From an uncultured Eubacteriales bacterium (GTDB taxonomy: Bacteria; Acidobacteriota; Aminicenantia; Aminicenantales; Aminicenantaceae), in contig CAZEWV010000001.1 of NCBI GenBank assembly GCA_964516025.1, positions 3,669 through 40,454 of the forward strand: a DNA stretch of 36,786 nucleotides, given 5' to 3'. Both the position numbers and the translations under genes were made by a program. Under the pieces are notes generated by a model. The model ran no database searches. It was given only the letters and a program-made list of their open reading frames with translations, and was not told where the DNA came from. Positions 10,823 to 27,594 of this stretch are shown here, one piece after another. Position 1 is the stretch's first letter; every line of letters starts with the position of its first letter.

Positions 10823-11012
10823 AATATTTGTATCTTATTCTTTTCTTCTCTTTTTCTTTTCCTCATCTGTCGCCGGAGTTCTTTTGAGAAGGACTCTCTG
10901 CCTTGTTTTCATTCTTTCCTTCTCTTGGTTTATTCGCATTTCCTCTCCTGCTAGTTCTGCCCGATTCTACTTTCTCTGATCTAAAAAAGCAAATGGGATC
11001 CCCCCAATTTCC

Positions 11013-11997
11013 GGTGCTTCTTCAGGCAACTGTTGTTACTGAGCCTGAGACCATGAAAACTTCTCTACTCGAATCAGAATTTCCAAAAACATGAAAAACC
11101 ACCAAAAAAGAAGCGCTAGTGCCGTAAAAATTTCTCGAAAGCTGAGTTGCTTTTTGACTAATCCGGACTGCATCGCAGGAGTCCGTATTTCCTCTCCGAA
11201 TTTTAAGACTGAATGCGGCCGGACGAAATTATAATAACACATTTGGAGAGCAAGATTGTCAGCAAGAAGATCTTTCCGCCTGGAATGACAAGCCGTTCGG
11301 CGTCCTAAATACGCACAGCCCTGTCAGATAGTAAGATTAAGTCGATCAATGAATGAGGTGTTGATTGTGGAGGAATCACCTGATTCAGAAGTGTTTTGAC
11401 ATTTCGGTATTTGCGGTTCCCTACAACCTTGGAAATCCACATCCGGGACCAGACTTCGATTGCGACGAATATCCACATAGGCTTCTTCTTTGTTCCGGCA
11501 AAGGTTCGGATTTCATCAGCTTGAAGTTCAATTAACTCAGGGCCTTTGAGATTTTGATCATTAAACTCACCAGTTACTTGACACGCAAGGTATTGCCAGC
11601 TGGCGATCTTATTCCAGGAAAAGCACTTGATCCGCGAAATTGACGAAATCCCGACTCCTTCAACAGTCATTTGAACCACCTCATCAAAATCCAAACGAGA
11701 TTTGTGAAGTCTGTAGTATGGCGTTCCCTTTGTTGAACAGAAAGTTTTTTTACAAGTCTTGCAGAGATAACGCTGACGTCTCCCTTGTCTCGTTGTATAC
11801 TTCGAATGGCGGATGATATTACCTTTACCAAACTTTCCATGATCCTGACAATTTTCGTTCTGGCAGCAGCGATCTCTCACGGGGGCTTATACTTCATTGG
11901 ACATATTCCTAGCAATACGATTGTACTTAGTTTGTTTGGAAATAATAGCTTGCTGGGTATTTTTGATCAAGTAACAACACTTCCCAGAGGAAGCACC
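11013..11997 (-). mobile_element. IS1-family insertion sequence, copy 1 (defective)
   Basis: Bounded by imperfect terminal inverted repeats. These are GGTGCTTCTTCAGGCAACTGTTGTTAC (11013-) and the reverse complement of GTAACAACACTTCCCAGAGGAAGCACC (-11997). The GGTG.. termini and the transposase zinc-finger block ..QRYLCKTCKKTF.. resemble IS1 InsA (..QRYLCSHCRKTW..). The same ends recur at four other places in the window. Confidence 0.8.
11036..11880 (-). pseudogene. IS1-family transposase, disrupted (frameshift, internal deletion and in-frame TGA)
   Basis: N-terminal ORF 11305..11880 (GTG start; ..ELQADEIRTFAGTKKKPMWIFVAIEVWSRMW.. DDE region) and C-terminal ORF 11036..11242 (..MCYYNFVRPH..). 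Compared with copy 3, the segment encoding ..TDGFEPY...KKRRKNRVINVERRMIFG.. is missing. The reading frame shifts near 11380. The codon that is CGA (R) in copy 3 (LTIRQGC) is TGA here. Confidence 0.75.
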
Positions 11998-12020
11998 CGA
12001 ATTTAGCTGAAACGAAACAA

Positions 12021-13220
12021 TCAGGAAATCTTCTGCAGGACATGTTCAATGTCTGCAATTATGTCTGCTTCGTCTTCGATGCCAACAGAGACCCGGATGA
12101 GACTGGGAGGAATATCGGCCTTCGCCAGTTCCTCGGGCCCCAAGACGGAATGAGTTGTGGAAGCGGGATGGGTGACGATTGTCTTGCAGGTGCCCAAATG
12201 GGTAGCATGCACCCATAATTCAAGTGAATCAATCACCTTGACAGCGTCTTCATATGAGCCTTTGAGCACAAAGGACATCAACGAACTACAACCTTTCATT
12301 TGGATTTGGGCCAGCTCATAATAGGGATTGGAATTGAGTCCGGGATAATTGACAGAACTGACCTTCGGATGACTCTCTAGGAATTTGGCAAGCGCGACAG
12401 CATTGCGGCAATGTTTTTCCATACGGAGAGAAAGATGTTCCAATCCGAGGATACTCAGCCATGCATTAAATGGCGACATCGAGGGACCCAGATAGCGCAT
12501 CGAGGTTAAACGGAGGCCATCCACGAGCTCTGCAGATCCACAAATAATCCCACCCAGACTGGTGGCATTTCCACAGATGTACTTGGTCGTCGAATGGACG
12601 ACAAAGTCTGCCCCATGCTCAATGGGTCTTTGGAGGGCGGGTGTGCAGATGGTGTTGTCCACGATAAGAGGAATGCTTTTTTCCTTTGCCAATTCTGCGA
12701 GGGAAGGGATGTCAGCAATAAAGAGGCCAGGATTGCTGGGACTTTCGACAAAAAGGAACTTTGTCCGTGGGGTGATCGCAGAAGCCCAGTCATCCATCGA
12801 TTCGGGATGGGTCACCCAGTTGGTCTTTAGCCCCATTCGTTTAAAACCGGCATCAAATAAACAGAATGTACCACCGTAAATTCGGTTGGAAGAGACAATC
12901 TCATCTCCAGTTGTCAAAAGATGGTGGCAGAGCATGGAAATAGCCCCCATACCTGAAGAGGTGGCAATGGCTGCCTTCGTAAGTTCCAGAGCTGCCATTC
13001 GTTTTTCAAAAACCTGAACTGTCGGGTTGTTCCAACGTCCGTAAGTAAAGCCAGGCTTTTCAGCTGCGAAAATCGCAGCCGCTTCCTTAGCATCTACATA
13101 AGGGTAAGCCGCGGACTGGTAGATTGGAGTGACCATAGAATCGGGTTCAAAACCGGTATGCCCTCCGTGTATGGCCAGGGTATCGAATCCGTATTTTCTC
13201 ATTCTAAACTCCTCCGGCAA
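12021..13220 (-). CDS. PLP-dependent Cys/Met-metabolism (transsulfuration) enzyme, O-acetylhomoserine sulfhydrylase / methionine gamma-lyase-like
   Basis: 399-aa ORF. It has the family blocks ..SSGMGAISM.., ..DNTICTPALQRP.. and the PLP-lysine context ..VVHSTTKYICGNATSLGG... GGAGGAG SD lies upstream. The exact reaction cannot be assigned from sequence alone. Confidence 0.8.
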   Translation of the reverse strand: MPEEFRMRKYGFDTLAIHGGHTGFEPDSMVTPIYQSAAYPYVDAKEAAAIFAAEKPGFTYGRWNNPTVQVFEKRMAALELTKAAIATSSGMGAISMLCHHLLTTGDEIVSSNRIYGGTFCLFDAGFKRMGLKTNWVTHPESMDDWASAITPRTKFLFVESPSNPGLFIADIPSLAELAKEKSIPLIVDNTICTPALQRPIEHGADFVVHSTTKYICGNATSLGGIICGSAELVDGLRLTSMRYLGPSMSPFNAWLSILGLEHLSLRMEKHCRNAVALAKFLESHPKVSSVNYPGLNSNPYYELAQIQMKGCSSLMSFVLKGSYEDAVKVIDSLELWVHATHLGTCKTIVTHPASTTHSVLGPEELAKADIPPSLIRVSVGIEDEADIIADIEHVLQKIS

Positions 13221-13996: not shown

Positions 13997-16498
13997 ATGA
14001 AAAGTAAAGCTGAACACAGGATTCTTGCGTCAAGAATCTCCCATGATTTTTTACATCTGTCAGATCAGGTTTTCATTTTAACCAATAAGGACATTGCGAG
14101 GATTGATTTTCTCCGCGACTTGTTGATTCTACTCTCAAATTTTTCTAGCTGTTCGTTTGTAGGACTAAGAATTTTAGAAGGGAATAACTATTTACAAAGT
14201 GAGATTTCAGGGATTAAAAAACCTGAATTTCGGTTTCGGGTTAAATCTTGCATGCGGGGAGAAAGAAGTCAGTATATCCCATGTTCGGCGAAAGACACAC
14301 CAATTGAAACGGCATGTGCAAATGTATTTACTTCAAGGTTTCATCCCGGCCTTTGCTGTTTCACTGCAAAGGGGAGTTTTTGGACAGGTGAAAAGGGAAA
14401 TCTTTTGGCATTCCCTCCGAAAAAAGGAGACAAGAGGCACCTGCCGCCTACGAAAAATGGTAATTCATATGAATCTTACATGTTGGTCCCAATTAATACA
14501 GGAGAAGACCGGATAGGGCTCCTGATGATGATGAGTGAAAAGAAAAATTTCTTTTCAGAAAAAGATGTCACCCATTATGAAGATTTTGTGAAGATTCTGG
14601 GAATTGCAATTTCCAGCCAGCTTTCGCAAGCGGCTCTTCGAGAGAGAGTCAAAGAACTGAGATGTCTCTACAGCCTCTCAGAACTGGCCGCATGGCCAGA
14701 TACATCTTTAGACAGCATATTCCGGAGAACAATAATGGCTGTCCCTCCTGGCTGGCAGTATCCTGAAATCACTTGTGCCCGTCTTGTTTTTGAGGGAAAA
14801 GAATTTCTTACTGATAATTTTAAAAAAACACGCTGGAGACAAAAAGCCCCCATAATCGTAGATGGAAAAAAGAAGGGTTCCCTGGAAGTTTTTTACATGA
14901 AAAAGAAAATGGATATCGATGAAGGACCTTTTCTGAAAGAGGAAAGAGAGCTTCTGAATGCTTTAGTTGTCTTGCTCGGATCGATAGTCGAACATAGACA
15001 GACTGAGGAGGCTAGATCCAAGTTGGCATCCATTGTTGAATTTTCGGACAATGCAATTATCAGTAAGAATCTTGACGGAATGATAATCAGTTGGAACAAA
15101 GGAGCTGAAAGACTGTTTGGATATACTGAAGATGCGGTTTTGGGTAAATCTATAACGATACTGATACACCCAGCCTACGCCGGAGAAATTGATGAGTTTT
15201 TAAAAGCAATCAAAAGCGGGAAAAGTATTGATGACAAAGAGACTCTTTTTGTAAAGAAGGACGGGGAAAGTATAGATGTCGCGCTTTCGCTCTCTCCAAT
15301 AAATGATGGAACAGGACGATTGACCGGAGCTTCAACCATTGCGCAAGACATATCGGATCGAAAAAGAGCCGAAAATGCTCTTTTGCAGAGTGAGCACGCA
15401 CTCAAGGAACGAGTTAAAGAATTAACCTGTTTATACAGTCTGGCACAACTCTCCAAGGAGCCAAAAATCTCGCTGGATGAATTGCTCATAGGAATAACCA
15501 AGCTTCTCCCCCCGGCCTGGCAGTACCCAGAGATCACATCCGGCGCTATTTTATTAGATGATAAATACTATGAATCCCAAGGTTTCAGAAAGGGCAAGCA
15601 TATCCAATCTTCAGATATCATAATAAAAGGATACAATCGGGGAAAGATTGAGGTCCACTACTCAGAGGAAATGCCTGAGCTGGATGAAGGGCCTTTTCTC
15701 AATGAGGAAAGAAATCTGATTGATACGATCGCCAAACAGATCAGCGTCATTATTGATAGAAGAGAGACAGAACAGGAAAAAAGTCAATTGAAGGAACAAC
15801 TGCGTCATGCAGACAGACTTGCCACTATCGGACAGCTTGCTGCCGGGGTAGCCCATGAGCTCAATGAGCCTTTAGGGAATATTCTAGGGTTCGCTCAACT
15901 CATGAAGAAAACAGAGGAACTCCCCGATCAGGCGTCTCAAGATGTCAAAAAAATCATCTCTGCATCTTTATTCGCAAGAGAGATCATCAAAAAGCTAATG
16001 TTATTTGCCCGCCAGACTCCCCCACGCAAAACAGAAGTCAATCTGAACAATATTGTTAAAGAAGGAATCGGCTTTCTCAAAAGCCGTGCTTTAAAGGAAG
16101 GGATTAAGATCATTTGGAAACTTTCCCCTCAACTCCCTGAGATAACAGCCGATCCTTCTCAGCTCATCCAGGTTTTTGTCAACCTCGTCGTGAATGCCTT
16201 TCAGGCGATGCCTAAAGGCGGATCATTAACCATCCGGACATTAAGAAAAGCAAATCAAGTCCACCTCCAGATCGTGGATACGGGAGAAGGAATAGACGAT
16301 GATGTGAAAGAAAAGATATTTCTTCCATTTTTTACGACAAAAGACATCGGGAAGGGAACGGGTTTAGGATTGTCTGTTGCCCACGGGATAATCAACTCTC
16401 ATGGAGGGTCTATTATCGTAAAAAGCGAGAGGGGAAAGGGTACGTGTTTCGATATACAATTGCCCCTTAAAGGGCCGAATTCTTCAAAGGAGGGCTAA
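13997..16498 (+). CDS. Cytoplasmic multi-sensor histidine kinase (GAF-like, unknown sensor module, PAS, second unknown sensor module, HisKA, HATPase_c)
   Basis: 833-aa ORF with no hydrophobic segments. The H-box is ..AAGVAHELNEPLGNI.. and the ATPase N/G boxes are ..NLVVNAFQAM.., ..DTGEGI.., ..GTGLGLSV... PAS is ..FSDNAIISKNLDGMIISWNKGAERLFGY... Two paralogous modules of about 125 aa begin at RVKELRCLYSLSEL and RVKELTCLYSLAQL. The start codon is uncertain (no SD). Confidence 0.85.
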   Translation: MKSKAEHRILASRISHDFLHLSDQVFILTNKDIARIDFLRDLLILLSNFSSCSFVGLRILEGNNYLQSEISGIKKPEFRFRVKSCMRGERSQYIPCSAKDTPIETACANVFTSRFHPGLCCFTAKGSFWTGEKGNLLAFPPKKGDKRHLPPTKNGNSYESYMLVPINTGEDRIGLLMMMSEKKNFFSEKDVTHYEDFVKILGIAISSQLSQAALRERVKELRCLYSLSELAAWPDTSLDSIFRRTIMAVPPGWQYPEITCARLVFEGKEFLTDNFKKTRWRQKAPIIVDGKKKGSLEVFYMKKKMDIDEGPFLKEERELLNALVVLLGSIVEHRQTEEARSKLASIVEFSDNAIISKNLDGMIISWNKGAERLFGYTEDAVLGKSITILIHPAYAGEIDEFLKAIKSGKSIDDKETLFVKKDGESIDVALSLSPINDGTGRLTGASTIAQDISDRKRAENALLQSEHALKERVKELTCLYSLAQLSKEPKISLDELLIGITKLLPPAWQYPEITSGAILLDDKYYESQGFRKGKHIQSSDIIIKGYNRGKIEVHYSEEMPELDEGPFLNEERNLIDTIAKQISVIIDRRETEQEKSQLKEQLRHADRLATIGQLAAGVAHELNEPLGNILGFAQLMKKTEELPDQASQDVKKIISASLFAREIIKKLMLFARQTPPRKTEVNLNNIVKEGIGFLKSRALKEGIKIIWKLSPQLPEITADPSQLIQVFVNLVVNAFQAMPKGGSLTIRTLRKANQVHLQIVDTGEGIDDDVKEKIFLPFFTTKDIGKGTGLGLSVAHGIINSHGGSIIVKSERGKGTCFDIQLPLKGPNSSKEG

Positions 16499-17854
16499 GT
16501 GGCCGCTACGCGCAAAAAAGACTGCCTGCTCATTGTGGAAGATTCTTCTGAAACACGGGAAGTCCTTGAGAGGAATTTGATTTCCCAAGGATACAAAGTG
16601 CTTACGGCTCCTGGTGTTGAGGAAGCTGTTCGGATTCTCGAAGGAGAGGAGGTGGATCTTGTGGTCACCGACCTGAAAATGCCAGGCAGTAGTGGATTAG
16701 ATTTAGTCCGGCATGTCCGGGAAAATTTCAAGGACACCGAGGTCATGATGATCACTGGATATGCATCGATTGAAGGCGCAGTCAAGGCAGTGAAAACAGG
16801 TGCTGAAGAATATCTTTCGAAGCCGTTTACGGAAGATGAGCTGTTTGCGGCGGTGAAGAGAATTCTAGAAAAACTCCACCAGCGCAGGATTTCCCAAGCT
16901 TATGATTTTCGTAGGCCGCATACACCACATGGGCTTATAGGGGAATCAGCGGCGATGAATAAAGTGTTTCATGCCATATCTAAAACGGCCTCCACATCCG
17001 CCACAGTCCTGATTACGGGAGAGAGTGGGACAGGGAAAGAATTAGTAGCCAGAGCTACCCACTATGGGAGCCCGAGGTCTGCGGCTCCATTCGTCCCTGT
17101 TAACTGTGGTGGGATTCCCGAAGGGCTTCTGGAGAGCGAGCTTTTTGGCCATATCAAAGGAGCATTTACTGGGGCGACAGGGTCCCGTGCCGGATTTTTT
17201 CAAACCGCGGATGGCGGATCTATTTTCCTTGATGAAATTAGCGAAACAAGTCTTGCTATGCAGGTCAAGCTTCTTCGGGTTCTTCAGGACAAAGAAGTGT
17301 GCATGCTGGGGGCGACACGGACTCGTAAGGTCGATGTCCGAGTTATTGCTGCAACTAACAAGGATCTTGCCAAGTTGGTAAAAAAGGAAGGTTTCAGAGA
17401 AGATCTTTATTTCAGGTTGAACGTTATCACGATCGAAGTCCCTCCTCTTCGTGAGAGAGGAGATGATATTCTCCTCCTAATAAATCATTTTTCTCAGAAG
17501 TTTGCCAAAGAGATAGGCAAAACACCCCTTAGGTTTTCTGAAAGAGCACTCAGCGCACTTAAAAAATACAATTGGCCCGGAAACGTCAGAGAACTTGAAA
17601 ATGTTGTCAATCGTCTTGTTATAATGTGTGAGGTAGAGATTATCAATGCCTCGGATCTTCCATCTCTAATGCGATATTCCGCTCCACGAGGGGCCAGATT
17701 AAACCAGAGTCTGGAGGAAGTCGAAATCGAACATATACGTAATGTCCTTGCCAGCCTCGATGGAAACAAGACTCGCGCCGCCAAGATTCTCGGAATAGAC
17801 CGGAAAACCCTGAGGGAGAAACTGAAAAGCTATAGGATAAATCAGGAATATTAG
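16499..17854 (+). CDS. Sigma54-dependent response regulator (NtrC family: REC, AAA+ with GAFTGA, Fis-type HTH)
   Basis: 451-aa ORF. GTG start lies immediately after the kinase stop (TAAGTG) with AAGGAGGG upstream. It has receiver ..DLVVTDLKMPG.., Walker A GESGTGKE, the sigma54-contact loop GAFTGA, ..ELFGH.. and C-terminal ..GNKTRAAKILGIDRKTLREKLK.. HTH. Confidence 0.9.
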   Translation: MAATRKKDCLLIVEDSSETREVLERNLISQGYKVLTAPGVEEAVRILEGEEVDLVVTDLKMPGSSGLDLVRHVRENFKDTEVMMITGYASIEGAVKAVKTGAEEYLSKPFTEDELFAAVKRILEKLHQRRISQAYDFRRPHTPHGLIGESAAMNKVFHAISKTASTSATVLITGESGTGKELVARATHYGSPRSAAPFVPVNCGGIPEGLLESELFGHIKGAFTGATGSRAGFFQTADGGSIFLDEISETSLAMQVKLLRVLQDKEVCMLGATRTRKVDVRVIAATNKDLAKLVKKEGFREDLYFRLNVITIEVPPLRERGDDILLLINHFSQKFAKEIGKTPLRFSERALSALKKYNWPGNVRELENVVNRLVIMCEVEIINASDLPSLMRYSAPRGARLNQSLEEVEIEHIRNVLASLDGNKTRAAKILGIDRKTLREKLKSYRINQEY

Positions 17855-17961
17855 TGGGGAATTTTTCTCCACCGGTACATTTCGCTCCACCTCAACCGTC
17901 TTCACAGACCACACACATTTGATTAAAAAAGAAAAATATTACTCCTCAATAAACTTTGTGT

Positions 17962-18058: not shown

Positions 18059-18074
18059 TGGCACAGATATTGCA
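18059..18074 (+). promoter_or_regulatory. Sigma54 (-24/-12) promoter
   Basis: TGGCACagataTTGCA is an exact match to TGGCAC-N5-TTGCW with canonical GG/GC spacing. It lies about 40 nt upstream of the first operon ATG and directly downstream of a sigma54 activator gene. Confidence 0.8.
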
Positions 18075-18112
18075 CATGAAAAAGGGTGAATACATTATTA
18101 GAGGAGGTATTA

Positions 18113-18475
18113 ATGCAGAACTCAGAGATTCAGGCCCCAGGCAAAGAGAATGAAAAAGAAAACGTTATTGAAAAAGAGGTTGGTACCGGCCCACATCCGG
18201 TTACAGAGAAATTTAATGACCTCTGTGTGAGCTGCAACCACTTGTCTCTCTGTCAATCCAAGAAAAACACAGTACGTCCTGTGTATTTCTGTGAAGAGTT
18301 TGATGATTACATCCCCCCCTTATCCAAAATTGTTCAACAGGAAAAGAAAACGACGGCCTACAAAGACAGGATCGACAACCCGAATCTGGGTTTGTGTATG
18401 AATTGTGCGCACCGTGATGACTGTGGATACTCCAAATCTGAAGGAGGTATATGGCACTGCGAGGAATACGCTTGA
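18113..18475 (+). CDS. Small cysteine-rich protein with tandem CxxCx5Cx11-12CEE[FY] modules (function unknown)
   Basis: The ORF track starts at GTG 18086. I prefer ATG 18113 (GAGGAGG 5 nt upstream, downstream of the predicted sigma54 start site). The 120-aa protein has module 1 LCVSCNHLSLCQSKKNTVRPVYFCEEF and module 2 LCMNCAHRDDCGYSKSEGGIWHCEEY. Confidence 0.75.
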   Translation: MQNSEIQAPGKENEKENVIEKEVGTGPHPVTEKFNDLCVSCNHLSLCQSKKNTVRPVYFCEEFDDYIPPLSKIVQQEKKTTAYKDRIDNPNLGLCMNCAHRDDCGYSKSEGGIWHCEEYA

Positions 18476-18525: not shown

Positions 18526-19374
18526 ATGGAAGTGGAAACTGTTTATAAGATAATTGAGAAACAGGAAGGGGATGAGGGAGGACTCATTTCTATTCTGGAG
18601 GAGATCCAGAATCAATATAGCTATCTCAGCGAGGATGCATTGAGAATCGTCGCGGAAAAAACGGGTTCTTCTCTCGTCGATATCTACGGAATTGCCACGT
18701 TTTACAGATCTTTCAGTTTAAAGCCAAGAGGGAAACATCTGGTATCCGTGTGCCTCGGAACTGCCTGTCATGTCCGAGGAGGTCCGAATGTAGCTAAAGC
18801 GTTCGAACGTATCCTTGGAATAAAAGCAGGAGGAATGACCAAGGATAAGGAGTTTACTCTGGAGACTGTTGCATGCCTTGGGGCATGTGCCTTAGGCCCA
18901 ATTGTCGTCGTCGACGGGCACTATTTCTCCAAGGTCAGAATCTCTGATGTTGATAAAATCTTGAAAAGAGCCAAAAAAGGACTAGATCAGGAGAGAACCG
19001 ATGCCGATTCTCACCTTTTTCCGCTCGAAGTCAGTTGCCCACACTGCAATCATAGTTTAATGGATCACGGCTATTATATAGATGGGCATGCATCGATCCG
19101 TGTAACCGTGTCCTTTGGTCAAAAACATGGCTGGCTTCGAATGTCATCCCTTTTCGGGAGTTACGCGGTTGATTCGGAATATGAAATTCCAATGAAAACA
19201 GTTGTGAATTTCTTCTGTCCTCACTGCCATGCGGAATTAAATTCGGCGTCCAATTGTGTCAAGTGTGAGGCATCCATGGTACCGATGATAGTCCGAAGCG
19301 GAGGTATGCTTCAAATTTGCTCCCGCCGTGGTTGCAGGAACCATATGCTCGATCTCAACGGAGTCAACTTCTAA
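18526..19374 (+). CDS. NuoE/HydC-like thioredoxin-fold [2Fe-2S] subunit with C-terminal four-CxxC zinc-ribbon-like extension
   Basis: 282 aa. The N-terminal 150 aa or so carry the NuoE cluster motifs ..SVCLGTACHVRGG.. and ..VACLGACALGPIVVVDG... The C-terminal 120 aa or so carry CPHCNH, CPHCHAEL, CVKCEA and CSRRGC. GGAG SD lies upstream. Confidence 0.85.
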   Translation: MEVETVYKIIEKQEGDEGGLISILEEIQNQYSYLSEDALRIVAEKTGSSLVDIYGIATFYRSFSLKPRGKHLVSVCLGTACHVRGGPNVAKAFERILGIKAGGMTKDKEFTLETVACLGACALGPIVVVDGHYFSKVRISDVDKILKRAKKGLDQERTDADSHLFPLEVSCPHCNHSLMDHGYYIDGHASIRVTVSFGQKHGWLRMSSLFGSYAVDSEYEIPMKTVVNFFCPHCHAELNSASNCVKCEASMVPMIVRSGGMLQICSRRGCRNHMLDLNGVNF

Positions 19375-19427: not shown

Positions 19428-21278
19428 ATGGAAAAAATCGACACAATAGAAGATTTCAAGACTTTTAAAAGCCTTCTGACCGCGGATCGAGAGCCTGATA
19501 TGCCCACTCTAGTTATCCCTGCCGGGACTTGCGGCCAAGCAAGCGGAGCAAACGAACTTATTCGCATAGCAAAGAGGGAAATCTTGATGAAAGGGTTGGT
19601 AGACAAACTTAACCTCCGTATAACTGGATGTCATGGATTCTGTGAAATGGAGCCCTCAGTACTCGTTGTTCCCCACCGTACATTCTATCCGAAAATCACT
19701 CCTGCAAACATGGTGAAAATCGTCAGTGCAGTAAGTACCGGAAATGTTTTAGAAGATCTGTTATACAGAGACAAAGAATCGACAACAGTGGTGGAAAAGC
19801 AAGAAGATATTCCATTTTTTAAAAATCAGAAACGTGTTCTGCTTGCGAGGAATGAGCAGGTCGATCCGATCCGGATTTTCAACTACATAGAGAGCGGAGG
19901 ATATTCTTCCCTGGCCAAAGTCCTAGAGAAAAAAAGCTCAAAGTGGGTGGTTGATGAAGTGAAAAAATCCGACCTTCGAGGAAGAGGAGGGGCCGGCTTT
20001 TCGACAGGATTGAAGTGGGCGCTCCTTGCAAACCAGACCAATGGCTCAGGAAGTTATTTGGTCTGTAATGCTGATGAGGGGGATCCCGGCGCATATATGG
20101 ATCGGTGTTTGCTTGAAGGGAATCCACACTCCATTATCGAAGGAATGCTTATCGGTGCCTTCGGTACCGGAGCAACAGAAGGAGTGATGTATGTCCGGAA
20201 CGAGTATCCGTTAGCAATCAAACATTTCATTATAGCTCTCCGCCAGGCAAAAGAAATAGGCTTGTTGGGAGAGAATATTCTTGGTACAAGCTTTTCCTTT
20301 AATCTGAGATTGGTCAGGGGAGCGGGTGCATTTGTATGTGGAGAGGAAACCGCTCTCATGCGCTCTATTGAGGGAAACATAGGAGAACCTCGGCAGAGGC
20401 CTCCCTATCCCGTCCAGAGGGGAATCCGGAACAAGCCGACTGCTATCAATAATGTTGAAACTTGGGCTAATATTCCGGTGATCTTCGAAACTGGTGCAAA
20501 AGAATATGCTAAAACAGGAACAAAGAACAATTCTGGAACCAAGATCTTCAGTCTGGTTGGGAAAATCAAGAACACAGGTCTTGTTGAGGTTCCTATGGGG
20601 ATCTCTCTTAAAAGGATTATTGAGGATATCGGTGAAGGAGCTTCGGGCAAAGTAAAAATTAAAGCTGTCCAGACAGGGGGTCCGTCCGGCGGTTGTATTC
20701 CCGCAGATAAATTCAATGTGGCTATAGATTATGATTCTTTGTCCAAAGCCCGATCTATCATGGGATCCGGCGGCATGATCGCAATGGACGAACACACCTG
20801 TATGGTGGATGTCGCAAAATACTTCATGGAATTTCTTAAGGATGAATCCTGTGGAAAATGCTTCAGTTGCAGGAAAGGAACACAACGGATGTATGAGATT
20901 CTTGAGGACATCTCTAGCGGGAAAGGAACATTAGAAGAACTCGATTTACTCGAAGAACTTGCTCTTGTCGTTAAAGACACTACGATGTGCGGTTTGGGTC
21001 AGACAGCACCTAATCCAGTGCTGTCGACTCTTCTCTATTTCAGAGAGGAATTCCTGGAACACATCAAATACATGCGCTGTCCTGCCGGTGTCTGTAAGGA
21101 GCTAATCACGTTTTCCATTAACGAGTTATGTACAGGATGTGGGATCTGTAAGCGCGCCTGTCCTGAAAATGCAATAAGTGGTGAGAAAAAAATGCTGCAC
21201 ATGATCGACGCTGAAAAATGCATCAAATGTGACGCTTGTCGTTCTATCTGTAAATTTGATGCCGTTCAGATTGATTAG
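19428..21278 (+). CDS. NuoF/HydB-like FMN- and NAD(H)-binding subunit with N-terminal 2Fe-2S domain and C-terminal 2x[4Fe-4S] ferredoxin domain
   Basis: 616 aa. Motifs: GRGGAGFSTGLKW (FMN), CNADEGDPGA (NADH), ESCGKCFSCRKGT...MCGLGQTAPNP (N3-type 4Fe-4S). The N-terminal block is ..PAGTCGQASG..ITGCHGFCEMEP... The C-terminal blocks are CTGCGICKRACP and CIKCDACRSICK. Confidence 0.9.
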   Translation: MEKIDTIEDFKTFKSLLTADREPDMPTLVIPAGTCGQASGANELIRIAKREILMKGLVDKLNLRITGCHGFCEMEPSVLVVPHRTFYPKITPANMVKIVSAVSTGNVLEDLLYRDKESTTVVEKQEDIPFFKNQKRVLLARNEQVDPIRIFNYIESGGYSSLAKVLEKKSSKWVVDEVKKSDLRGRGGAGFSTGLKWALLANQTNGSGSYLVCNADEGDPGAYMDRCLLEGNPHSIIEGMLIGAFGTGATEGVMYVRNEYPLAIKHFIIALRQAKEIGLLGENILGTSFSFNLRLVRGAGAFVCGEETALMRSIEGNIGEPRQRPPYPVQRGIRNKPTAINNVETWANIPVIFETGAKEYAKTGTKNNSGTKIFSLVGKIKNTGLVEVPMGISLKRIIEDIGEGASGKVKIKAVQTGGPSGGCIPADKFNVAIDYDSLSKARSIMGSGGMIAMDEHTCMVDVAKYFMEFLKDESCGKCFSCRKGTQRMYEILEDISSGKGTLEELDLLEELALVVKDTTMCGLGQTAPNPVLSTLLYFREEFLEHIKYMRCPAGVCKELITFSINELCTGCGICKRACPENAISGEKKMLHMIDAEKCIKCDACRSICKFDAVQID

Positions 21279-21306: not shown

Positions 21307-22002
21307 ATGGTTACTTTAAACATTAACGGATTAGATGTGACCGTCGAAAAGAGCATGACTCTATTGGAAGCCGCTCAATTCCTAGGTTTTCCAATTCCAA
21401 CATTATGTCATATGGAAGGCCTTTCCCCATACGGAGCATGCAGGCTCTGTGTGGTAGAAATCGGAGAGGGGAAGAAATCAAAGTTAGTTTCTTCTTGCAC
21501 TTACCCGGTGGAAGAAGGGATTAAAGTCAGGACTACCTCAGAAAGGGTAGCTCGAGCTCGGAAAATGATAATCGAGCTCCTGCTGGCTTCCTGTCCTCAA
21601 TCCAAGCTAATTCAAGACCTAGCTTCTGCTCACAATGTCCAGAAACAGCGTTTCAAACAGGAATTCGAAGATTGCATACTCTGTGGACTCTGTGTCCGGA
21701 TGTGTGAAGAGCAGATGATGGCAAAAGCCATCGGTTTTCGCGGGAGAGGGGAAAACCGCACCATAGGGACTCCCTTTGACATCCGGTCCGAAGAATGCAG
21801 GACTTGTGGTGGATGTCAGTATGTCTGTCCAGCCTGTCAGCTCCGCTGCACGTTCACAGAGCCTGACAAGGCGATATGCGGAGCGTGTGGAAATCTAAGC
21901 CCAACTTGTCTGGAAAAAGATGATTTCAACGATATGATGTGCTACATGGAGCCCTGTGTAGCCTGTGAGATTAAAAATAAAGATGAAAAAAGGAGTATTT
22001 AA
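21307..22002 (+). CDS. Fe-S subunit resembling only the N-terminal part of NuoG/HydA ([2Fe-2S] plus two Cys4 cluster motifs)
   Basis: 231 aa. MVTLNINGLDVTV...LCHMEGLSPYGACRLCVVEI is a plant-type 2Fe-2S N-terminus as in NuoG. This is followed by CILCGLCVRMC and CRTCGGCQYVCP. No catalytic domain is attached. Confidence 0.8.
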   Translation: MVTLNINGLDVTVEKSMTLLEAAQFLGFPIPTLCHMEGLSPYGACRLCVVEIGEGKKSKLVSSCTYPVEEGIKVRTTSERVARARKMIIELLLASCPQSKLIQDLASAHNVQKQRFKQEFEDCILCGLCVRMCEEQMMAKAIGFRGRGENRTIGTPFDIRSEECRTCGGCQYVCPACQLRCTFTEPDKAICGACGNLSPTCLEKDDFNDMMCYMEPCVACEIKNKDEKRSI

Positions 22003-22004
22003 CC

Positions 22005-23621
22005 ATGACACTTTCCAAAATAAACGCAACAGCAGCAACATTAACAAAAAATCGGACTGAAGGATCCGTCGTTCCAGCATCAGGGATGTGCGTAACTTGT
22101 GTTGATGGATGTATTGGAATGTGCGAAATTGGGAAGTCCGCCTACCGCGGTCATGAAGTGATCTATCCACAACCTTTCGGAGTTATAACAACGGCTTCAG
22201 AAAAGAATTACCCTGTCGATTATTCCCATTTAAACATCATGGGCACAGCAACAGGGACCTTTGGAATTGAGGAAGATAGCGACAAAGCAATTTTTCCTGC
22301 CGTAAAACTCGAAGTTGCCTTTGGGCATGATAAAAAACTTCGTTTCAAGTACCCATGGATCATTCCTGGAATCGGTTCTACCGATATTGCAAAAAACAAT
22401 TGGGAGGGATTGGCGATCGGATCCGCATTGGCCGGGACGGGACTGACAATCGGAGAAAATGTTGTCGGGATGGATTCCGAAGCCGTCATAAAGAACGGAC
22501 GCGTGACGGACACGAAGGATCTCAAACGACGTGTTGATCTCTTTAAAAACCATCAGAGGAATGGATATGGAGCGATAATTGTCCAGGCCAATATCGAAGA
22601 TACACGGCTCAAAGTGCAGGAATACGCCATTGAAAAACTAGGGGTTACATGTGTGGAATTGAAGTGGGGACAGGGCGCTAAAAACATCGGAGGAGAGGTC
22701 AAAATCAGAGATATCAAACGGGCCCAAATGCTGCACAAGAGAGGATACGTTGTTCTCCCAAATCCAACTGATCCGCTTGTGATAAAAGCCTATGAGAGAG
22801 GAGCATTCAAGGAGTTTGAAAGACATTCGAGAGTGGGGATGGTGAATGAAGAATCTTTTGCAAAGAGAGTCGAAGAACTTCGTGCTGCAGGAGCAAAGCA
22901 CATCTTCTTAAAGACAGGGGCCTATAGGCCTCTGGACCTTGCCCGGGCAGTCTATTATTCCTCAAAATATCATATCGATCTTTTAACTGTCGATGGAGCG
23001 GGAGGTGGAACCGGCATGAGTCCTTGGAGAATGATGAATGAATGGGGAATCCCTCCGGTTGAACTTCACACTCTATTGTACAGATATGCCAAACAGCTTG
23101 CAGAAAGAGGAGCATACATTCCCGCATTAGCCGTCGCTGGGGGGTTCACATTCGAAGATCAGATCTTCAAGGGCCTTGCCTTGGGTGCCCCTTTCGTGAA
23201 GTTGGTCGGGATGGCAAGAGGCCCGATTGCCGCCGCCATGGTAGGAAAAACCATAGGAAGAACGATTAATGAAAATCAAGTTCCAATCTATGTCGAACGG
23301 TTTGGGAGGACAAGAGATGAGATTTTTGTCACGTCCAGTGATTTACGCAAAGAACTGGGAGATAAGGAATTCGATAAGACACCAACGGGTGCACTGGGAT
23401 TGTATACTTATTATGAGAGACTTGGGCAAGGCCTACGACAGCTGATGGCCGGCTGCCGCAAATTTGCCTTAAAACACATTTCAAGAGACGATCTGGCCGC
23501 GCTGACAAAAGATGTTTCTGATATCAGTGGTATTCCCCATGTAATGGATGTTGACAAGAAAGCTGTCGAGAACTTAATGAACGAGGACTTGATCCAATCA
23601 GAAGTCACAATGGTCCAGTGA
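22005..23621 (+). CDS. Glutamate-synthase FMN-domain-family (GltB domain 2-like) oxidoreductase with N-terminal CxxCxxxCxxxC motif
   Basis: 538 aa. It starts 2 nt after the preceding stop, with AAGGAG upstream. TIM-barrel FMN blocks are ..LTVDGAGGGTGMSPW.. and ..ALAVAGGFTFEDQIFKGLALGAPFV... The N-terminal block is ..GMCVTCVDGCIGMCEIGKS... No amidotransferase or GXGXG domain is present. Confidence 0.8.
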   Translation: MTLSKINATAATLTKNRTEGSVVPASGMCVTCVDGCIGMCEIGKSAYRGHEVIYPQPFGVITTASEKNYPVDYSHLNIMGTATGTFGIEEDSDKAIFPAVKLEVAFGHDKKLRFKYPWIIPGIGSTDIAKNNWEGLAIGSALAGTGLTIGENVVGMDSEAVIKNGRVTDTKDLKRRVDLFKNHQRNGYGAIIVQANIEDTRLKVQEYAIEKLGVTCVELKWGQGAKNIGGEVKIRDIKRAQMLHKRGYVVLPNPTDPLVIKAYERGAFKEFERHSRVGMVNEESFAKRVEELRAAGAKHIFLKTGAYRPLDLARAVYYSSKYHIDLLTVDGAGGGTGMSPWRMMNEWGIPPVELHTLLYRYAKQLAERGAYIPALAVAGGFTFEDQIFKGLALGAPFVKLVGMARGPIAAAMVGKTIGRTINENQVPIYVERFGRTRDEIFVTSSDLRKELGDKEFDKTPTGALGLYTYYERLGQGLRQLMAGCRKFALKHISRDDLAALTKDVSDISGIPHVMDVDKKAVENLMNEDLIQSEVTMVQ

Positions 23622-23897: not shown

Positions 23898-24803
23898 TTA
23901 ATCATAAAGATTATCGCCTGGGCTGAATTTACTGTGCTGCGATTGGATGTCCTTGAATGTGATATTCACATAATTCCTGACCATATCAAGAGTTTTGTGT
24001 CCAAGGATTTTCTGAAGGCTAAATATATCCCCGCCGTTCATCAGCCAATTCTTTGCAAATGTATGGCGGAAGGTATGAGCTGAGAGCCTTACGTTTTCTA
24101 TTTTAGCTTTAATCCCGATTCTTTCAATTGTTTTGTTCGTCATTCTAATTGTTAAAGGATCTCCGAATTTAGTAAGAAAAAGCACGCCTTCTTTCCCAAA
24201 CAACTTGTTTCTTCTATTCAAATATTTTACTAAACCAATGAGCGACCGATCTCCAAAAGGCACTACTCTCCCCTTTCCACCCTTTCCTCTAACTGTCAGG
24301 ATCTTCTCATCAAGCTGAATATTCTCAATCTTGAGTCCCAATAATTCTGAGATCCTGCAACCCGTATCATAAAGCAGAGTGATTAATGTATGGTTTCTGA
24401 TTCCTGGGAAATCCATCTGATGTTTTGTGACTTCAAGCATTGACATGATCTGGCTAGTGGAAAAAGTAGGAATAACAGCTTGGTCAGTCTTTACCCTTGA
24501 AATTTTCCTCGAAGGATTTTCTATGATCACATCCTCTTCTAACATAAACTTGAAGAGAATCTTCAGCACTTTAATGTGATGGTTAACTCCTCCAGGTGAG
24601 TAATTTTCCTTTATCCCTGAAACGTACTCCCTCAAAATAGTATGGTCGATCTGCTCGAGAGAGACATCAGGATATTGTGACTCCATAAACTCAAGGAATT
24701 TGCTGAGATGCTGGCTGTAGAAAGTGATTGTATTGGGGCTTAGATTCCTTAGCCTCCTGGTTGAGATAAAGGCAGACACCATCCCTCTTAAAGTTGTGGT
24801 CAT
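23898..24803 (-). CDS. Tyrosine site-specific recombinase (XerC/XerD-like phage integrase family)
   Basis: 301 aa. It has an N-terminal SAM-like core-binding domain (..TITFYSQHLSKFLEFM..). Catalytic residues sit in the usual blocks: ..DTGCRISELLGL.. (R), ..AHTFRHTFA.. (H-x-x-R), ..ILGHKTL.. (H), ..VRNYVNI.. (Y). AAGGAGG SD lies upstream. It sits immediately downstream of a tRNA-fMet-derived repeat. Confidence 0.9.
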   Translation of the reverse strand: MTTTLRGMVSAFISTRRLRNLSPNTITFYSQHLSKFLEFMESQYPDVSLEQIDHTILREYVSGIKENYSPGGVNHHIKVLKILFKFMLEEDVIIENPSRKISRVKTDQAVIPTFSTSQIMSMLEVTKHQMDFPGIRNHTLITLLYDTGCRISELLGLKIENIQLDEKILTVRGKGGKGRVVPFGDRSLIGLVKYLNRRNKLFGKEGVLFLTKFGDPLTIRMTNKTIERIGIKAKIENVRLSAHTFRHTFAKNWLMNGGDIFSLQKILGHKTLDMVRNYVNITFKDIQSQHSKFSPGDNLYD

Positions 24804-24987: not shown

Positions 24988-25044
24988 TTAGCACCGTTAG
25001 TCAGAATTAGGCATTATTAGGCACAATTTGGCCCGTATTTGGCC
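24988..25044 (+). repeat. Phased site array: TTAGCA, TTAGTC, TTAGGC, TTAGGC, TTGGCC, TTGGCC at 9-11 bp spacing
   Basis: Sites start at 24988, 24997, 25007, 25017, 25028 and 25039. The reverse complement of 36185-36243 shows the same order of sites. Confidence 0.65.
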
Positions 25045-25068
25045 CACAGGGATAGGTATATATATTGT

Positions 25069-25097
25069 TTGACACTCATTCCTCAAATATTTAAGCT
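25069..25097 (+). promoter_or_regulatory. Sigma70-type promoter candidate for the Ser/Thr kinase gene
   Basis: TTGACA (25069-25074), 17-nt spacer, TAAGCT (25092-25097). The extended -35 context GTTTGACACTC is shared with the candidate promoter at 32736. Confidence 0.4.
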
Positions 25098-25122
25098 ATT
25101 ACCATCCAGTATGGAGGAAAAG

Positions 25123-27594
25123 ATGAGCACTGTCTGCCCCAAGTGTCAAACCGCTAATCCCGAAGATTCTAAGTTATGTATGGAATGTTCAAGCTCACTT
25201 GAGCCCACACACGAAATCTCGGCTACAAAAACTCTCGAGACACCAGGCAAAGGAATAACCACAGGAACTACCTTTGCCTCCAGGTATGAAGTCATCAAGG
25301 AGCTCGGGAAGGGAGGTATGGGCAAAGTATATATGGCCTTGGATAATGAGATTGATGAAGAAGTTGCTTTAAAACTTCTTAAACCCGAGATTGCCTCTGA
25401 TGATAGCACAGTTGAACGCTTCCGGAATGAGCTGAAATTTGCCCGAAAGATCTCTCATAAAAATGTCTGTCGTATGTACCACCTTAGTAAAGAAGGAGAG
25501 ATTCCCTATATCACTATGGAGTATGTAGAAGGTGAGGATCTAAAGAGCTTGGTCAAAAAGAGAGGGAAACTGTCAGATGCGGAATCAATATCCATAGTCA
25601 AGCAACTGTGCGAAGGCTTGGCTGAAGCACATAGGCTGGGAGTTGTGCACCGGGATTTAAAGCCTCAAAACATCATGATCGATAAGGAAGGCACTGCAAA
25701 GATCATGGATTTTGGGATTTCCCGATTTGTCGAAGCACCTGGAGTGACGACAACAGGAATGATTATCGGGACTCCCGATTATTTATCACCCGAACAAGCA
25801 GAAGGAGAGGAGACAGATCAACGTGCTGATATCTATTCCTTAGGTGTGATTCTTTATGAATTGACCACAGGCAGGGTTCCATTTAAGGGGGATACGGCAT
25901 TGAGTGTGGCGCTAAAACATAAGTCCAAGGTACCTTCAAATCCAAAGGAACTCAATCCAAATATTTCGGAAAATCTCAACCGATTGATTTTGATCTGCAT
26001 GGCGAAAGAGAGAGAGGAGAGGTATCAGACAGCAGAAGAACTGTTGTTGGATTTAAACAATATTGAAGCAGGTATTCCCTTAGGAAAAAGGATCCTTCCC
26101 AAAAAAAAGAAACTTTTTAAAAAAAGACGTGTAATCAGGTGGAAGCAAATTTTCCTTTTTGGAGGAGTTCCACTTCTGCTGGTTTTGTTTATTGCAGGAG
26201 CATTTTATTTGTACACAACTCGAGCTGCAACCATCCATTCCATAGCGGTCCTCCCCTTTGAGAATCTTACAGGAGATTCCGAGCAGGAGTATTTTGTTGA
26301 TGGAATAACGGATGAATTGATAGGAAATCTTGGACGGATTAAAGCGTTCCGACGAGTGATATCTTTCTGGACTGTAGCACAGTATAAAAACGCGAAAAAA
26401 CCATTGCCTGAGATTGCCCAGGAGCTTAATGTGGATGCCGTAGTGACAGGTTCAGTTCAGAAGACTGGTGGGAGCTTGAGCATTCGGGTTCAATTGATAA
26501 AAGTGAATCCAGATGAACAAAATCTATGGGAGGAGACATATGATCGGATCCTGACCGATGTACTAGTAATGAGCGGAGAGATAGCCCAGACTATTGCCAG
26601 GGAGATCCGGATAAATCTTACAACCGAAGAAAAAACTCTCTTTGCAGATACCCGTCAGATAAATCCAGAAACTTACCAGGCATACCTAAAGGGTATGTCC
26701 TACTTGACAGATATTACAATCGACTCGGAAACGGCAGATAAGGCCATTGCCTGTTTTAATGAAGCTGTTGAAAATGATCCCACAGATCCCTTGGCCTATG
26801 CGGGACTGGCATATGGCTACACTACTATCGGACACAGCTATAATCCGACTCCGGATGCCTGGCCCAGAGCCAGGGCAGCAGCCGACAGAGCATTGAGGCT
26901 AGATCCCATGCTAGCAGAAGGCTATGCAGCCTTAGCAGATGTCAAGCTTTACTACGAATGGGACTGGGAGGGTGCAGAGCAGGCCTTTCTGAGGGCCAAT
27001 GAGCTGAATCCCAATCTGGCCTTGAATCACTTCCACTATGCCTGGTTGCTCGCTGAGATAGGACGCATGGATGAAGCCATTGTCGAACACAAACGTGCCC
27101 AGGAACTAGATCCACTAACTCCTCTGCATACGGCATGGTTAGGAGGGCTGTACTGGATCGATGGAAAATATGATAAGGCAATTATAGAAATACAGAAAGT
27201 ATTTGAATTCGAACCTGATAACCATTTAGCAACATGGCTCCTGGCGTTAGTTTACGCAGACATAGGAAGGTATGAGGAGGCTGTTGAAACTCACGAAAAA
27301 TATATGGCCCCTTGGTGGTCACTAGCACGCCTCTACGCAGAAGTCGGAAGGGAGGATGAGGCAAGAGAGATTGCGGCCAAATTGGAGGAGCAACCTGATC
27401 CTCTGCGTACATTCGGACTGGCTGCAATGTACACAGCCCTTGGGGATAAGGACAAAGCATTCCAGTGGCTGGCTTATAAACCGCACCACGCCTGGATGCC
27501 AGCATTCAGGATTTTCTTCTGGTTCACCCCTCTACACGACGATCCCCGTTTCCATGATCTCCTGCAAAAGATGAACCTGCCTCCTTTGGAATGA
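25123..27594 (+). CDS. Membrane Ser/Thr protein kinase with N-terminal zinc ribbon and extracytoplasmic TolB-N-like plus TPR domains
   Basis: The ORF track starts at TTG 25039. I prefer ATG 25123 (GGAGG 5 nt upstream); ATG 25111 is also possible. It has CPKCQTANPEDSKLCMEC. Hanks kinase motifs are GKGGMGKVY, VALK, HRDLKPQNIM, DFGIS and GTPDYLSPE. One TM helix is followed by ..IAVLPFENLTGDSEQEYFVDGITDELI.. and then TPR-like repeats. Confidence 0.85.
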   Translation: MSTVCPKCQTANPEDSKLCMECSSSLEPTHEISATKTLETPGKGITTGTTFASRYEVIKELGKGGMGKVYMALDNEIDEEVALKLLKPEIASDDSTVERFRNELKFARKISHKNVCRMYHLSKEGEIPYITMEYVEGEDLKSLVKKRGKLSDAESISIVKQLCEGLAEAHRLGVVHRDLKPQNIMIDKEGTAKIMDFGISRFVEAPGVTTTGMIIGTPDYLSPEQAEGEETDQRADIYSLGVILYELTTGRVPFKGDTALSVALKHKSKVPSNPKELNPNISENLNRLILICMAKEREERYQTAEELLLDLNNIEAGIPLGKRILPKKKKLFKKRRVIRWKQIFLFGGVPLLLVLFIAGAFYLYTTRAATIHSIAVLPFENLTGDSEQEYFVDGITDELIGNLGRIKAFRRVISFWTVAQYKNAKKPLPEIAQELNVDAVVTGSVQKTGGSLSIRVQLIKVNPDEQNLWEETYDRILTDVLVMSGEIAQTIAREIRINLTTEEKTLFADTRQINPETYQAYLKGMSYLTDITIDSETADKAIACFNEAVENDPTDPLAYAGLAYGYTTIGHSYNPTPDAWPRARAAADRALRLDPMLAEGYAALADVKLYYEWDWEGAEQAFLRANELNPNLALNHFHYAWLLAEIGRMDEAIVEHKRAQELDPLTPLHTAWLGGLYWIDGKYDKAIIEIQKVFEFEPDNHLATWLLALVYADIGRYEEAVETHEKYMAPWWSLARLYAEVGREDEAREIAAKLEEQPDPLRTFGLAAMYTALGDKDKAFQWLAYKPHHAWMPAFRIFFWFTPLHDDPRFHDLLQKMNLPPLE

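Follow-up and report, generated by a model that had tools for sequence, protein, structure and literature searches.

A duplicated four-cysteine mini-protein associated with a sigma-54 regulatory pair and exchangeable glutamate-deaminating enzymes

What is the role of a small cysteine-rich protein whose gene stands first in an operon for a redox complex? The question is raised by the open reading frame (ORF) at positions 18113-18475 (+) of a 36,786-nucleotide stretch of contig CAZEWV010000001.1, referred to here in its whole length as the window, which derives from an uncultured bacterium placed within the Aminicenantaceae. A sequence-only reading of this DNA had suggested that the ORF encodes a metal- or Fe-S-binding accessory subunit of the redox enzyme encoded downstream, a chaperone or a redox sensor. 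This suggestion divides upon closer analysis: a metal or Fe-S role fits the invariant four-cysteine (Cys4) pattern and the fusions of the same module to NuoE-like proteins, but the protein, termed here the mini-protein, is not a dedicated subunit of this redox complex. Rather, a histidine kinase, a sigma-54 activator, a promoter and the mini-protein behave as one unit, to which the enzyme genes are attached as exchangeable cargo. We therefore favour, with a probability of roughly 0.4, the reading that the mini-protein is an autonomous metal protein that acts as an accessory of this kinase/sigma-54 regulatory cassette.

Constant regulators and exchangeable enzyme genes

The gene neighbourhood of the mini-protein was examined in the window, in 79 genome loci and in four additional contigs by tblastn, the window proteins being the probes. 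Genes in the compared loci were called with our own ORF and tblastn scripts, and all relatives seen come from metagenome-assembled genomes (MAGs). Upstream counts refer to the 74 loci where 2.5 kb or more of upstream sequence is available, and downstream counts to the 78 loci with 1 kb or more downstream. An NtrC-type sigma-54 activator is located upstream of the mini-protein gene in 71 of the 74 loci, directly adjacent to it in 66, and a homologous histidine kinase is found upstream in 70 of the 74. The next gene downstream is NuoE-like in 55/78 loci (~70%) and encodes a glutamate dehydrogenase (GDH) in 21/78 (~27%), comprising 19 small GDHs of ~430 amino acids (aa) and two large NAD-GDHs of ~1,000 aa. 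Nothing follows on the same strand in two of the 78, L163 (with a convergent GDH gene) and L056 (with nothing related), such that the mini-protein is the sole gene on its strand behind the promoter; a hairpin comes after it in L163. Thus, homologues do not always precede NuoE/NuoF-like genes, a regularity that the sequence-only reading had proposed to survey. Within a second, unranked sample of 118 loci, the next gene is NuoE-like in 71, a GDH in 25 and of another type in 13, and the activator is present upstream in 58 of 68 loci. The other cargo includes a zinc alcohol dehydrogenase (Zn-ADH)-like gene together with an aminotransferase and an amidohydrolase, PPDK_N proteins, as well as stand-alone copies near Glu/Gln-tRNA synthetase.

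On a quick tree of 73 activator proteins, the cargo switches between GDH and NuoE-like at least eight times on branches with a Shimodaira-Hasegawa approximate likelihood ratio (SH-aLRT) support of at least 95, for example within L037/L062 and L027/L072, and between L001 and its Planctomycetota sisters. Sister loci with differing cargo, such as L037 and L062, carry nearly identical modules, and no alignment column of the modules separates the cargo types. Upstream of the convergent GDH gene in L163, no canonical sigma-54 element was detected. The kinase, activator, promoter and mini-protein behave as one unit, with the enzyme genes as exchangeable cargo. We note that L163 also contains, beside its three-module mini-protein and convergent GDH gene, a gene of the HGD-D 2-hydroxyglutaryl-CoA dehydratase type with a BcrAD_BadFG activator (10727-12799 and neighbours), and that thiolase, enoyl-CoA hydratase and methylmalonyl-CoA mutase genes lie nearby, representing a glutamate-fermentation neighbourhood.

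The regulatory pair of the window consists of a cytoplasmic sensor histidine kinase of 833 aa (13997-16498, +), identified by Pfam and BLASTP with PAS, HisKA, HATPase_c and weak GAF matches, and an NtrC-type response regulator/sigma-54 enhancer-binding protein (16499-17854, +; Pfam Response_reg, Sigma54_activat, AAA_lid_14 and HTH_8), which falls within one orthologous clade with the activators of the other loci. Directly behind the activator gene lies GGGGAATTTTTCTCCACCGGTACATTTCGCTCCACC (17856-17891, +), a relaxed GGGGA-N5-TCCCC inverted repeat with a third TCCCC-like half-site, which is a probable upstream activator site. The strict form of the repeat is found just past the regulator stop codon in 32 of 73 loci, compared with ~1 expected from shuffles, and the copy in the window fits the relaxed form only. 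The sigma-54 (-24/-12) promoter that follows, TGGCACAGATATTGCA (TGGCAC-N5-TTGCA; 18059-18074, +), is the sole exact consensus match in the window, and 57 of 73 related intergenic regions contain a GG-N10-GC element, compared with 9.9 expected. No sigma-70-like site was found on the plus strand upstream of the mini-protein gene, nor a terminator-like hairpin between the mini-protein gene and the next four genes; the only nearby hairpin (18267-18284) falls within the mini-protein coding sequence, and a terminator-like hairpin is located at 23821, after the last operon gene. Because the sigma-54 promoter lies upstream, no sigma-70-like site or terminator intervenes and a hairpin follows the last gene, the ORF at 18113-18475 is assigned as the promoter-proximal gene of a predicted five-gene sigma-54 operon, in agreement with the position given to it by the sequence-only reading. 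Its transcription would then depend on the adjacent activator.

The four genes that follow encode a NuoE/HoxE-like 2Fe-2S subunit (18526-19374, +), a NuoF-like flavin mononucleotide (FMN)/NADH subunit with a C-terminal 2x[4Fe-4S] domain (19428-21278, +), a HoxU/NuoG-N-terminal-like 2Fe-2S and 4Fe-4S protein (21307-22002, +), all three assigned by Pfam and NCBIfam, and, as the last operon gene, a stand-alone glutamate-synthase-type FMN-domain protein (GltS-FMN; 22005-23621, +; Pfam PF01645). The NuoE-like subunit has a C-terminal extension of ~130 aa (18976-19374, residues ~150-282) with four CxxC-type pairs, CPHCNH...FFCPHCH...CVKC...CSRRGC, which gives weak double-zinc-ribbon matches and is conserved throughout related operons.

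In addition to its Pfam domains, the kinase holds two copies of an unannotated ~125-aa domain, 'KELxCLY...GWQYP...FLxEER', recognized by BLASTP. The copies are located at 14636-15010 and 15392-15775 (residues 214-338 and 466-593), have no Pfam match and recur in the kinases of most cassettes. The same domain opens a PPDK_N/nucleotidyltransferase protein encoded after the GDH gene in L001 (9764-12988) and L037 (36% identity, E 3e-21). We suggest that it is probably the signal-sensing domain of the cassette. Directly downstream of the operon, and convergent to it, is a tyrosine recombinase gene (Phage_integrase, E 1e-35; 23898-24803, -), which may be relevant to the mobility of the cassette. An 851-aa Ser/Thr protein kinase with an N-terminal CxxC pair resembling a zinc ribbon and a C-terminal tetratricopeptide repeat (TPR) array is encoded two genes downstream (25039-27594, +) and probably has no relation to the mini-protein.

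Association of the mini-protein with the enzyme complex

Obligatory co-occurrence of the mini-protein with the NuoE-NuoF-FeS-GltS(FMN) (Bfu-like) complex is not observed. In addition to the 21 of 78 loci with GDH cargo, none of seven GDH-type genomes yielded a GltS-FMN homologue at E<=1e-20, a search that recovered both of two positive controls, and no NuoE-like gene was found in two of four GDH-type genomes; all of these genomes are MAGs, in which absence is no proof. The enzyme operon also exists without the mini-protein. Of 50 GltS-FMN operons with sufficient upstream room, 33 have the mini-protein together with the activator and 12 have neither, with the mini-protein alone in three and the activator alone in two, and the presence of the mini-protein therefore tracks that of the kinase/activator. 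Since homologues do not always stand before NuoE/NuoF, enzyme operons occur without the mini-protein and the kinase/activator pair is the constant partner, the mini-protein is not a dedicated subunit of the NuoE-NuoF-FeS-GltS(FMN) complex. GltS-FMN itself shows 77-82% amino-acid identity over more than ten phyla, which include Zixibacteria, Planctomycetota, Acidobacteriota, Bacteroidota, Ignavibacteriota and Spirochaetota (loci L167-L246), and the mini-protein is only ~40% identical across comparable loci. The identity of GltS-FMN points to a very strong constraint and/or a recent horizontal spread of the enzyme operon. The Aminicenantes-type locus L165 (9412-12588) encodes a NuoF-like protein of 1,058 aa that includes a fused GltD-like Fer4_20/Pyr_redox_2 domain, which provides a firmer link between the complex and glutamate-synthase chemistry.

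The modules are nevertheless found as parts of the NuoE-like subunit in a minority of loci. A module-1-type domain is fused to the NuoE-like N-terminus in L004/L195, L167, L226, L228, L233 and L234, and a module-2-type domain (...GGVWHCEEY-x) to the NuoE-like C-terminus in L011, L016, L026, L039 and L165, where it attaches directly behind the Cys-rich extension. These single-module fusions amount to 11 distinct loci, or ~10% of operons. Most of the loci also retain the free two-module gene, but L233 and L234 have the fused module only and no kinase/activator pair. Since both ends of the NuoE-like subunit occur fused to single modules, the mini-protein is likely to contact this subunit.

Such contact is also a feature of the best-surviving alternative, in which the mini-protein works as a dedicated carrier of electrons or as an auxiliary cluster subunit. 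A [4Fe-4S] cluster would be bound in each module and the protein would dock onto the NuoE-like subunit, as a mini-ferredoxin or as an additional port for electrons on the Bfu-like complex; at dehydrogenase-type loci it would serve ferredoxin-dependent steps after glutamate oxidation, for example 2-oxoglutarate:ferredoxin oxidoreductase. We regard this alternative as possible, yet rather unlikely. The fusions in 11 loci speak for it, in particular those of L233 and L234, where the fused module persists without a nearby kinase/activator pair, as do the position of the gene at the head of an operon rich in Fe-S proteins, the presumed anaerobic nature of the host lineages and the C-x2-C-x5-C pattern, which is familiar from [4Fe-4S] sites. 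Clostridial 2x[4Fe-4S] ferredoxins and polyferredoxins of the Fer4 clan are likewise small proteins of anaerobes with two (sometimes three) Cys4 repeats that arose by duplication and that are encoded in redox operons. The ligand pattern differs, however, being C-x2-C-x2-C-x3-C-P in these ferredoxins and C-x2-C-x5-C-x11/12-C-E-E-aromatic in the mini-protein, which does not contain the ferredoxin motif anywhere in its sequence. No Fer4 family matched P0001, the window's mini-protein, or is among the 25 families shown for 146 relatives, although the same Pfam scan did detect Fer4 domains in the adjacent NuoF-like and HoxU-like proteins. Nor does the build of the mini-protein resemble that of compact acidic ferredoxins, since the modules are separated by long variable linkers (~34 aa), no packing between them is predicted and the median isoelectric point (pI) of 5.9 is near neutral. 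A carrier dedicated to the complex also leaves unexplained the mini-protein being equally conserved in GDH-only genomes that lack GltS-FMN (0/7) and sometimes the NuoE-like gene, GDHs being enzymes that need neither a ferredoxin nor an Fe-S partner, and 12/50 near-identical enzyme operons lacking any module. No residue of the modules tracks the type of cargo.

The modules, their family and their probable metal

P0001 is a protein of 120 aa with two four-cysteine modules, translated from 18113-18475 (+). The N-terminal tail (residues 1-36; 18113-18220, +) is Lys/Glu-rich, variable and predicted to be disordered, with a predicted local distance difference test score (pLDDT) of 54-61; its length differs among homologues and it is missing from some. 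Module 1, LCVSCNHLSLCQSKKNTVRPVYFCEEF (residues 37-63; 18221-18301, +), follows the pattern L-C-x2-C-x5-C-x12-C-E-E-F, with cysteines C38-x2-C41-x5-C47-x12-C60 and closing CEEF, and is defined by conservation and a pLDDT of 84-92. Module 2, LCMNCAHRDDCGYSKSEGGIWHCEEY (residues 94-119; 18392-18469, +), reads L-C-x2-C-x5-C-x6-GGIWHC-E-E-Y, with cysteines C95-x2-C98-x5-C104-x11-C116 and closing CEEY, and is followed by one last residue. The variable linker in between (residues 64-93; 18302-18391, +; pLDDT 59-71) was described in the sequence-only reading as Lys/Glu-rich, which holds to a moderate degree; across the family the linker varies. The two-copy CxxC-x5-C-x11/12-CEE[FY] architecture from the same source is confirmed: when built from 146 homologues, the profiles of modules 1 and 2 align with an hhalign probability of 98.8% (E 5e-17), and the modules therefore represent a true internal duplication.

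A word-index search returned just four relatives of the mini-protein, but an exhaustive HMMER scan with the alignment of those four yielded, at E<=1e-3, the representatives of 1,756 clusters formed at 50% identity; 988 of these representatives reach E<=1e-10. The best 150 listed representatives are mostly 90-180 aa long, and relatives are present in 525 species genomes from more than 15 phyla, mostly uncultured. These lineages, generally regarded as anaerobic, comprise among others Planctomycetota, Zixibacteria, WOR-3, Ignavibacteriota, Aminicenantes, Cloacimonadota and Desulfobacterota; no isolate was found, all genome records examined being MAGs. All eight cysteines as well as W114 are invariant in the alignment of 146 sequences, and F63, G93, L94, G112, H115, E117, E118 and Y119 are at least 90% conserved. 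Module 1 has a cysteine spacing of 2/5/12 and module 2 one of 2/5/11, the median linker length is 34 aa (range 26-43), and in 140 of the 146 homologues the chain ends exactly one residue past CEEY. The median pI of the family is 5.9. Some members have three modules and the others two. Apparent domain fusions among long members proved to be extra modules or low-complexity tails and were set aside. Two loci have two mini-protein genes each and no adjacent kinase/activator pair, namely L007 (4283-4612 and 6648-6977), where each gene has its own sigma-54-like promoter, and L051, where the genes are in tandem (4905-5279 and 5339-5653).

The database name of every cluster member examined is 'hypothetical protein' or blank. 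P0001 has no match in Pfam or NCBIfam, and no significant match was obtained when the module was sought in known domain families by profile search: the best matches among PDB sequence profiles, the eL43 zinc ribbon (E 0.27) and a Fur-family protein (E 1.2), are insignificant, and Foldseek found no match to the mini-protein in the PDB. This upholds the earlier view that the module belongs to none of the standard ferredoxin, rubredoxin or zinc-ribbon types. With regard to rubredoxin, the Pfam scan of 146 members gave no match, and each module has one CxxC only. Neither the mini-protein nor a glutamate-linked Bfu enzyme is mentioned in the literature covered by a full-text search, or in a survey of the Bfu family (PMC9304861). 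Thus, the mini-proteins are a family without a characterized relative; their signature is new and their conserved genomic role is distinctive.

Each module is predicted to form a Cys4 metal site, for which one [4Fe-4S] cluster is somewhat more likely than Zn, although Zn or mononuclear Fe may be bound instead. The preference for a cluster is based on the ligand pattern, a census of weak matches and the hosts being regarded as anaerobic. C-x2-C-x5-C is a known [4Fe-4S] ligand pattern (NuoG N5 cluster, WhiB, endonuclease III). At the sub-threshold level of E<=0.1, the Pfam scan of the 146 members gave matches to WhiB for 17, Cas4 for three, NuoG-N5 for one and NuoF for one, compared with one member each for zinc-ribbon families, such that the weak matches favour [4Fe-4S] families with C-x2-C-x5-C over zinc ribbons. 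In size and layout, the modules are similar to the NuoG/HoxU N5 domain (PF10588, H-x3-C-x2-C-x5-C) and to the 'FeS' domain at the N-terminus of RnfB/CFeSP (PF04060, C-x2-C-x4-C-x16-C), both of which comprise ~30-40 residues with a CxxC-x4/5-C core plus a distant ligand, bind one cubane and belong to NADH-linked Fe-S enzymes. However, the G-L-C, P-V, GGVWHC and CEE[FY] signatures of the mini-protein are missing there; PF10588 matched one of the 146 members weakly (E 0.0039) and PF04060 is not among the 25 families shown. The AlphaFold model of the mini-protein, calculated with the 146-sequence alignment, has well-defined modules (pLDDT 84-92) with a floppy N-terminus and linker and a predicted template modelling score (pTM) of 0.36, and contains no beta-hairpins. 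For a 90-aa member, a second run reached only low confidence (pLDDT 64, pTM 0.26) and was uninformative on module packing; neither model displays confident packing between modules. A beads-on-a-string build is therefore suggested by the variable linker and tail, the occurrence of two or three modules, the single modules in fusions and the lack of confident packing.

The beads-on-a-string build, with disordered linkers and two to three autonomous units of ~30 aa, is also typical of zinc fingers, and the mini-protein could in principle be a non-redox zinc (or iron) finger adaptor or chaperone, the structural Cys4 knuckles of which tether, stabilize or mature the co-expressed dehydrogenases or bind nucleic acid. 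Consistently, the best PDB sequence match is the eL43 zinc ribbon (9spj_r) through a shared local CxxC...G-I-W-H-C string, and the fusions adjoin the zinc-ribbon-like tail of NuoE-like subunits. We nevertheless consider this role improbable. The match to eL43 is weak, the module has no second CxxC knuckle and its third Cys lies within the hairpin region. A 2/5/11-12 spacing in which the fourth Cys stands alone fits neither a zinc-ribbon nor a treble-clef pattern, no zinc-finger family is matched by more than two of the 146 members, all below threshold, and the model has no beta-hairpins to support such a fold. Furthermore, GDHs need no assembly factor, and a zinc adaptor would leave the restriction to lineages presumed to be anaerobic unexplained.

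The sub-threshold WhiB matches in 17/146 members (best E 0.0012) raise the alternative that the mini-protein is a distant WhiB-like (Wbl) homologue, that is, a transcription factor with an Fe-S cluster and with a sigma factor or RNA polymerase as its binding partner. Both are small cytoplasmic proteins in a regulatory setting, with C-x2-C-x5-C followed by a nearby G-[VI]-W turn. The order of ligands is distinct, being C-x(14-27)-C-x2-C-x5-C in WhiB, where the fourth Cys lies upstream and G[VI]WGG and a basic tail follow, but C-x2-C-x5-C-x11/12-C with GG[VI]WHC in the mini-protein, where the fourth Cys comes downstream of the others, the module occurs as a tandem duplicate and the chain ends at CEEY-x without a basic C-terminal tail. 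P0001 has no match to Pfam WhiB (PF02467) at E<=1, PF02467 matches nothing in the window's own genome, and no actinobacterium is found among the hosts examined. Assignment to the WhiB family was rejected on the basis of an hhalign probability of 1-3% against a profile of 70 WhiB1 orthologues, a profile of low diversity with an effective number of sequences (Neff) of ~1.5. The likeness is at the level of the motif, from which homology is not demonstrable, and we judge a WhiB-type factor to be very improbable.

The start of the mini-protein is likely to be ATG 18113, because a Shine-Dalgarno sequence read from the DNA, AGAGGAGG (18100-18107, +), precedes it by 5 nt and because several homologues of 121 aa cover 99-100% of the mini-protein. 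The sigma-54 element at 18059-18074 places the start of the transcript near 18085, from which it follows that the alternative GTG 18086 would be leaderless. Values of 0.13-0.41 for the ratio of nonsynonymous to synonymous substitution rates (dN/dS) between close homologue pairs indicate purifying selection on the mini-protein, which, together with the family of at least 1,756 clusters, backs the coding sequence. That the ORF is untranslated and merely an operon leader or regulatory RNA region, a reading for which there is nothing beyond its shortness and its position behind a promoter, is effectively refuted, as judged from conservation, by the strong Shine-Dalgarno sequence, the thousands of homologues that conserve the frame, the eight Cys codons and the stop position, the dN/dS far below 1 and the modules found in frame within NuoE-like proteins.

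A proposed regulatory accessory of a sigma-54 cassette

The favoured reading is that the mini-protein is an accessory of the kinase/sigma-54 cassette, a role that we infer at the level of the cassette. The mini-protein would be cytoplasmic, with two independently folding Cys4 modules of ~30 residues on a flexible linker. The conserved cassette has three parts, the 'KELxCLY' histidine kinase, the NtrC-type activator, and the activator site and sigma-54 promoter with the mini-protein gene behind them, such that the mini-protein is its constant first product. It would switch on interchangeable enzymes that deaminate glutamate or other amino acids, the NuoE-NuoF-FeS-GltS(FMN) complex in the window and small or large GDHs elsewhere. 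The mini-protein may report redox or metal state to the kinase/activator pair, or give feedback to it, and, where a NuoE-like complex is present, it may act by docking on the NuoE-like subunit, without being a stoichiometric catalytic subunit.

An accessory under its own two-component/sigma-54 system is expected to be a direct target of that system and to be inherited with it, and the gene context agrees with this: the gene lies behind the promoter and activator site, the activator is upstream in 71/74 and 58/68 loci, and the 33 + 12 concordant operons compare with five discordant ones. Precedents for such an arrangement are ZraP-ZraSR, CpxP-CpxAR and PspA-PspF, in which small accessory proteins are under the control of their own two-component or sigma-54 system; ZraP is moreover metal-binding and sigma-54 dependent. 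The mini-protein is similar to these in size, in having a gene that is the predicted target of an adjacent kinase/activator system and in being co-inherited with it. It differs in that there is no sequence similarity, that ZraP, CpxP and PspA are periplasmic or membrane-associated stress factors, and that its cargo consists of metabolic enzymes, its feedback being a proposal. Control of a GDH gene by sigma-54 and an enhancer-binding protein also has a precedent, since RocR and SigL (sigma-54) control rocG, the catabolic glutamate dehydrogenase gene of Bacillus subtilis. However, RocR does not belong to the two-component response regulators, and rocG is not known to be preceded by a Cys-rich mini-protein.

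Several observations weigh against an accessory of the cassette. Approximately 10-15% of loci have the mini-protein but no adjacent kinase/activator pair, and in L255, L316 and L354 (Cloacimonadota and others) a stand-alone mini-protein gene is divergent from a class-I Glu/Gln-tRNA synthetase gene. The mini-protein and kinase/activator genes are adjacent, so their joint gain or loss may reflect physical linkage, for example a single deletion; the GltS tree is poorly resolved, and its supported branches require only two co-loss events. Modules were seen fused to NuoE-like proteins but not to the kinase, the activator or GDH, and by Rosetta-stone logic the enzyme would therefore be the physical partner. 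A regulator as the first gene of its own operon is plausible but not diagnostic, and the link to the kinase/activator pair is drawn from gene context. Likewise, the identity of the metal is read from the sequence, with a second structural model of low confidence (pLDDT 64).

A more specific form of the regulatory reading, which we advance tentatively and consider unlikely as a whole, is that the modules represent a new class of ~30-residue Cys4 (probably [4Fe-4S]) sensors. As the third, signal-reporting component of the cassette, the mini-protein would couple redox or Fe-S state to the expression of glutamate-deaminating enzymes, and via the NuoE-fused copies to their activity, across more than 15 phyla.

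Sigma-54 control of glutamate dehydrogenase, and small accessories under their own sigma-54 two-component system, were already known; the protein family itself is without a characterized relative. The mini-protein marks a portable cassette that would control glutamate deamination in many uncultured anaerobes, a reaction central to both amino-acid fermentation and the release of nitrogen in sediments and digesters. Should the modules bind Fe-S clusters, they would represent a new minimal cluster-binding fold. Were the mini-protein instead a carrier, it would be a new type of ferredoxin for the unstudied NuoE-NuoF-GltS(FMN) enzyme, and if, as an accessory of the cassette, it feeds back on the kinase/activator pair, the cassette would constitute a new three-component sigma-54 system.

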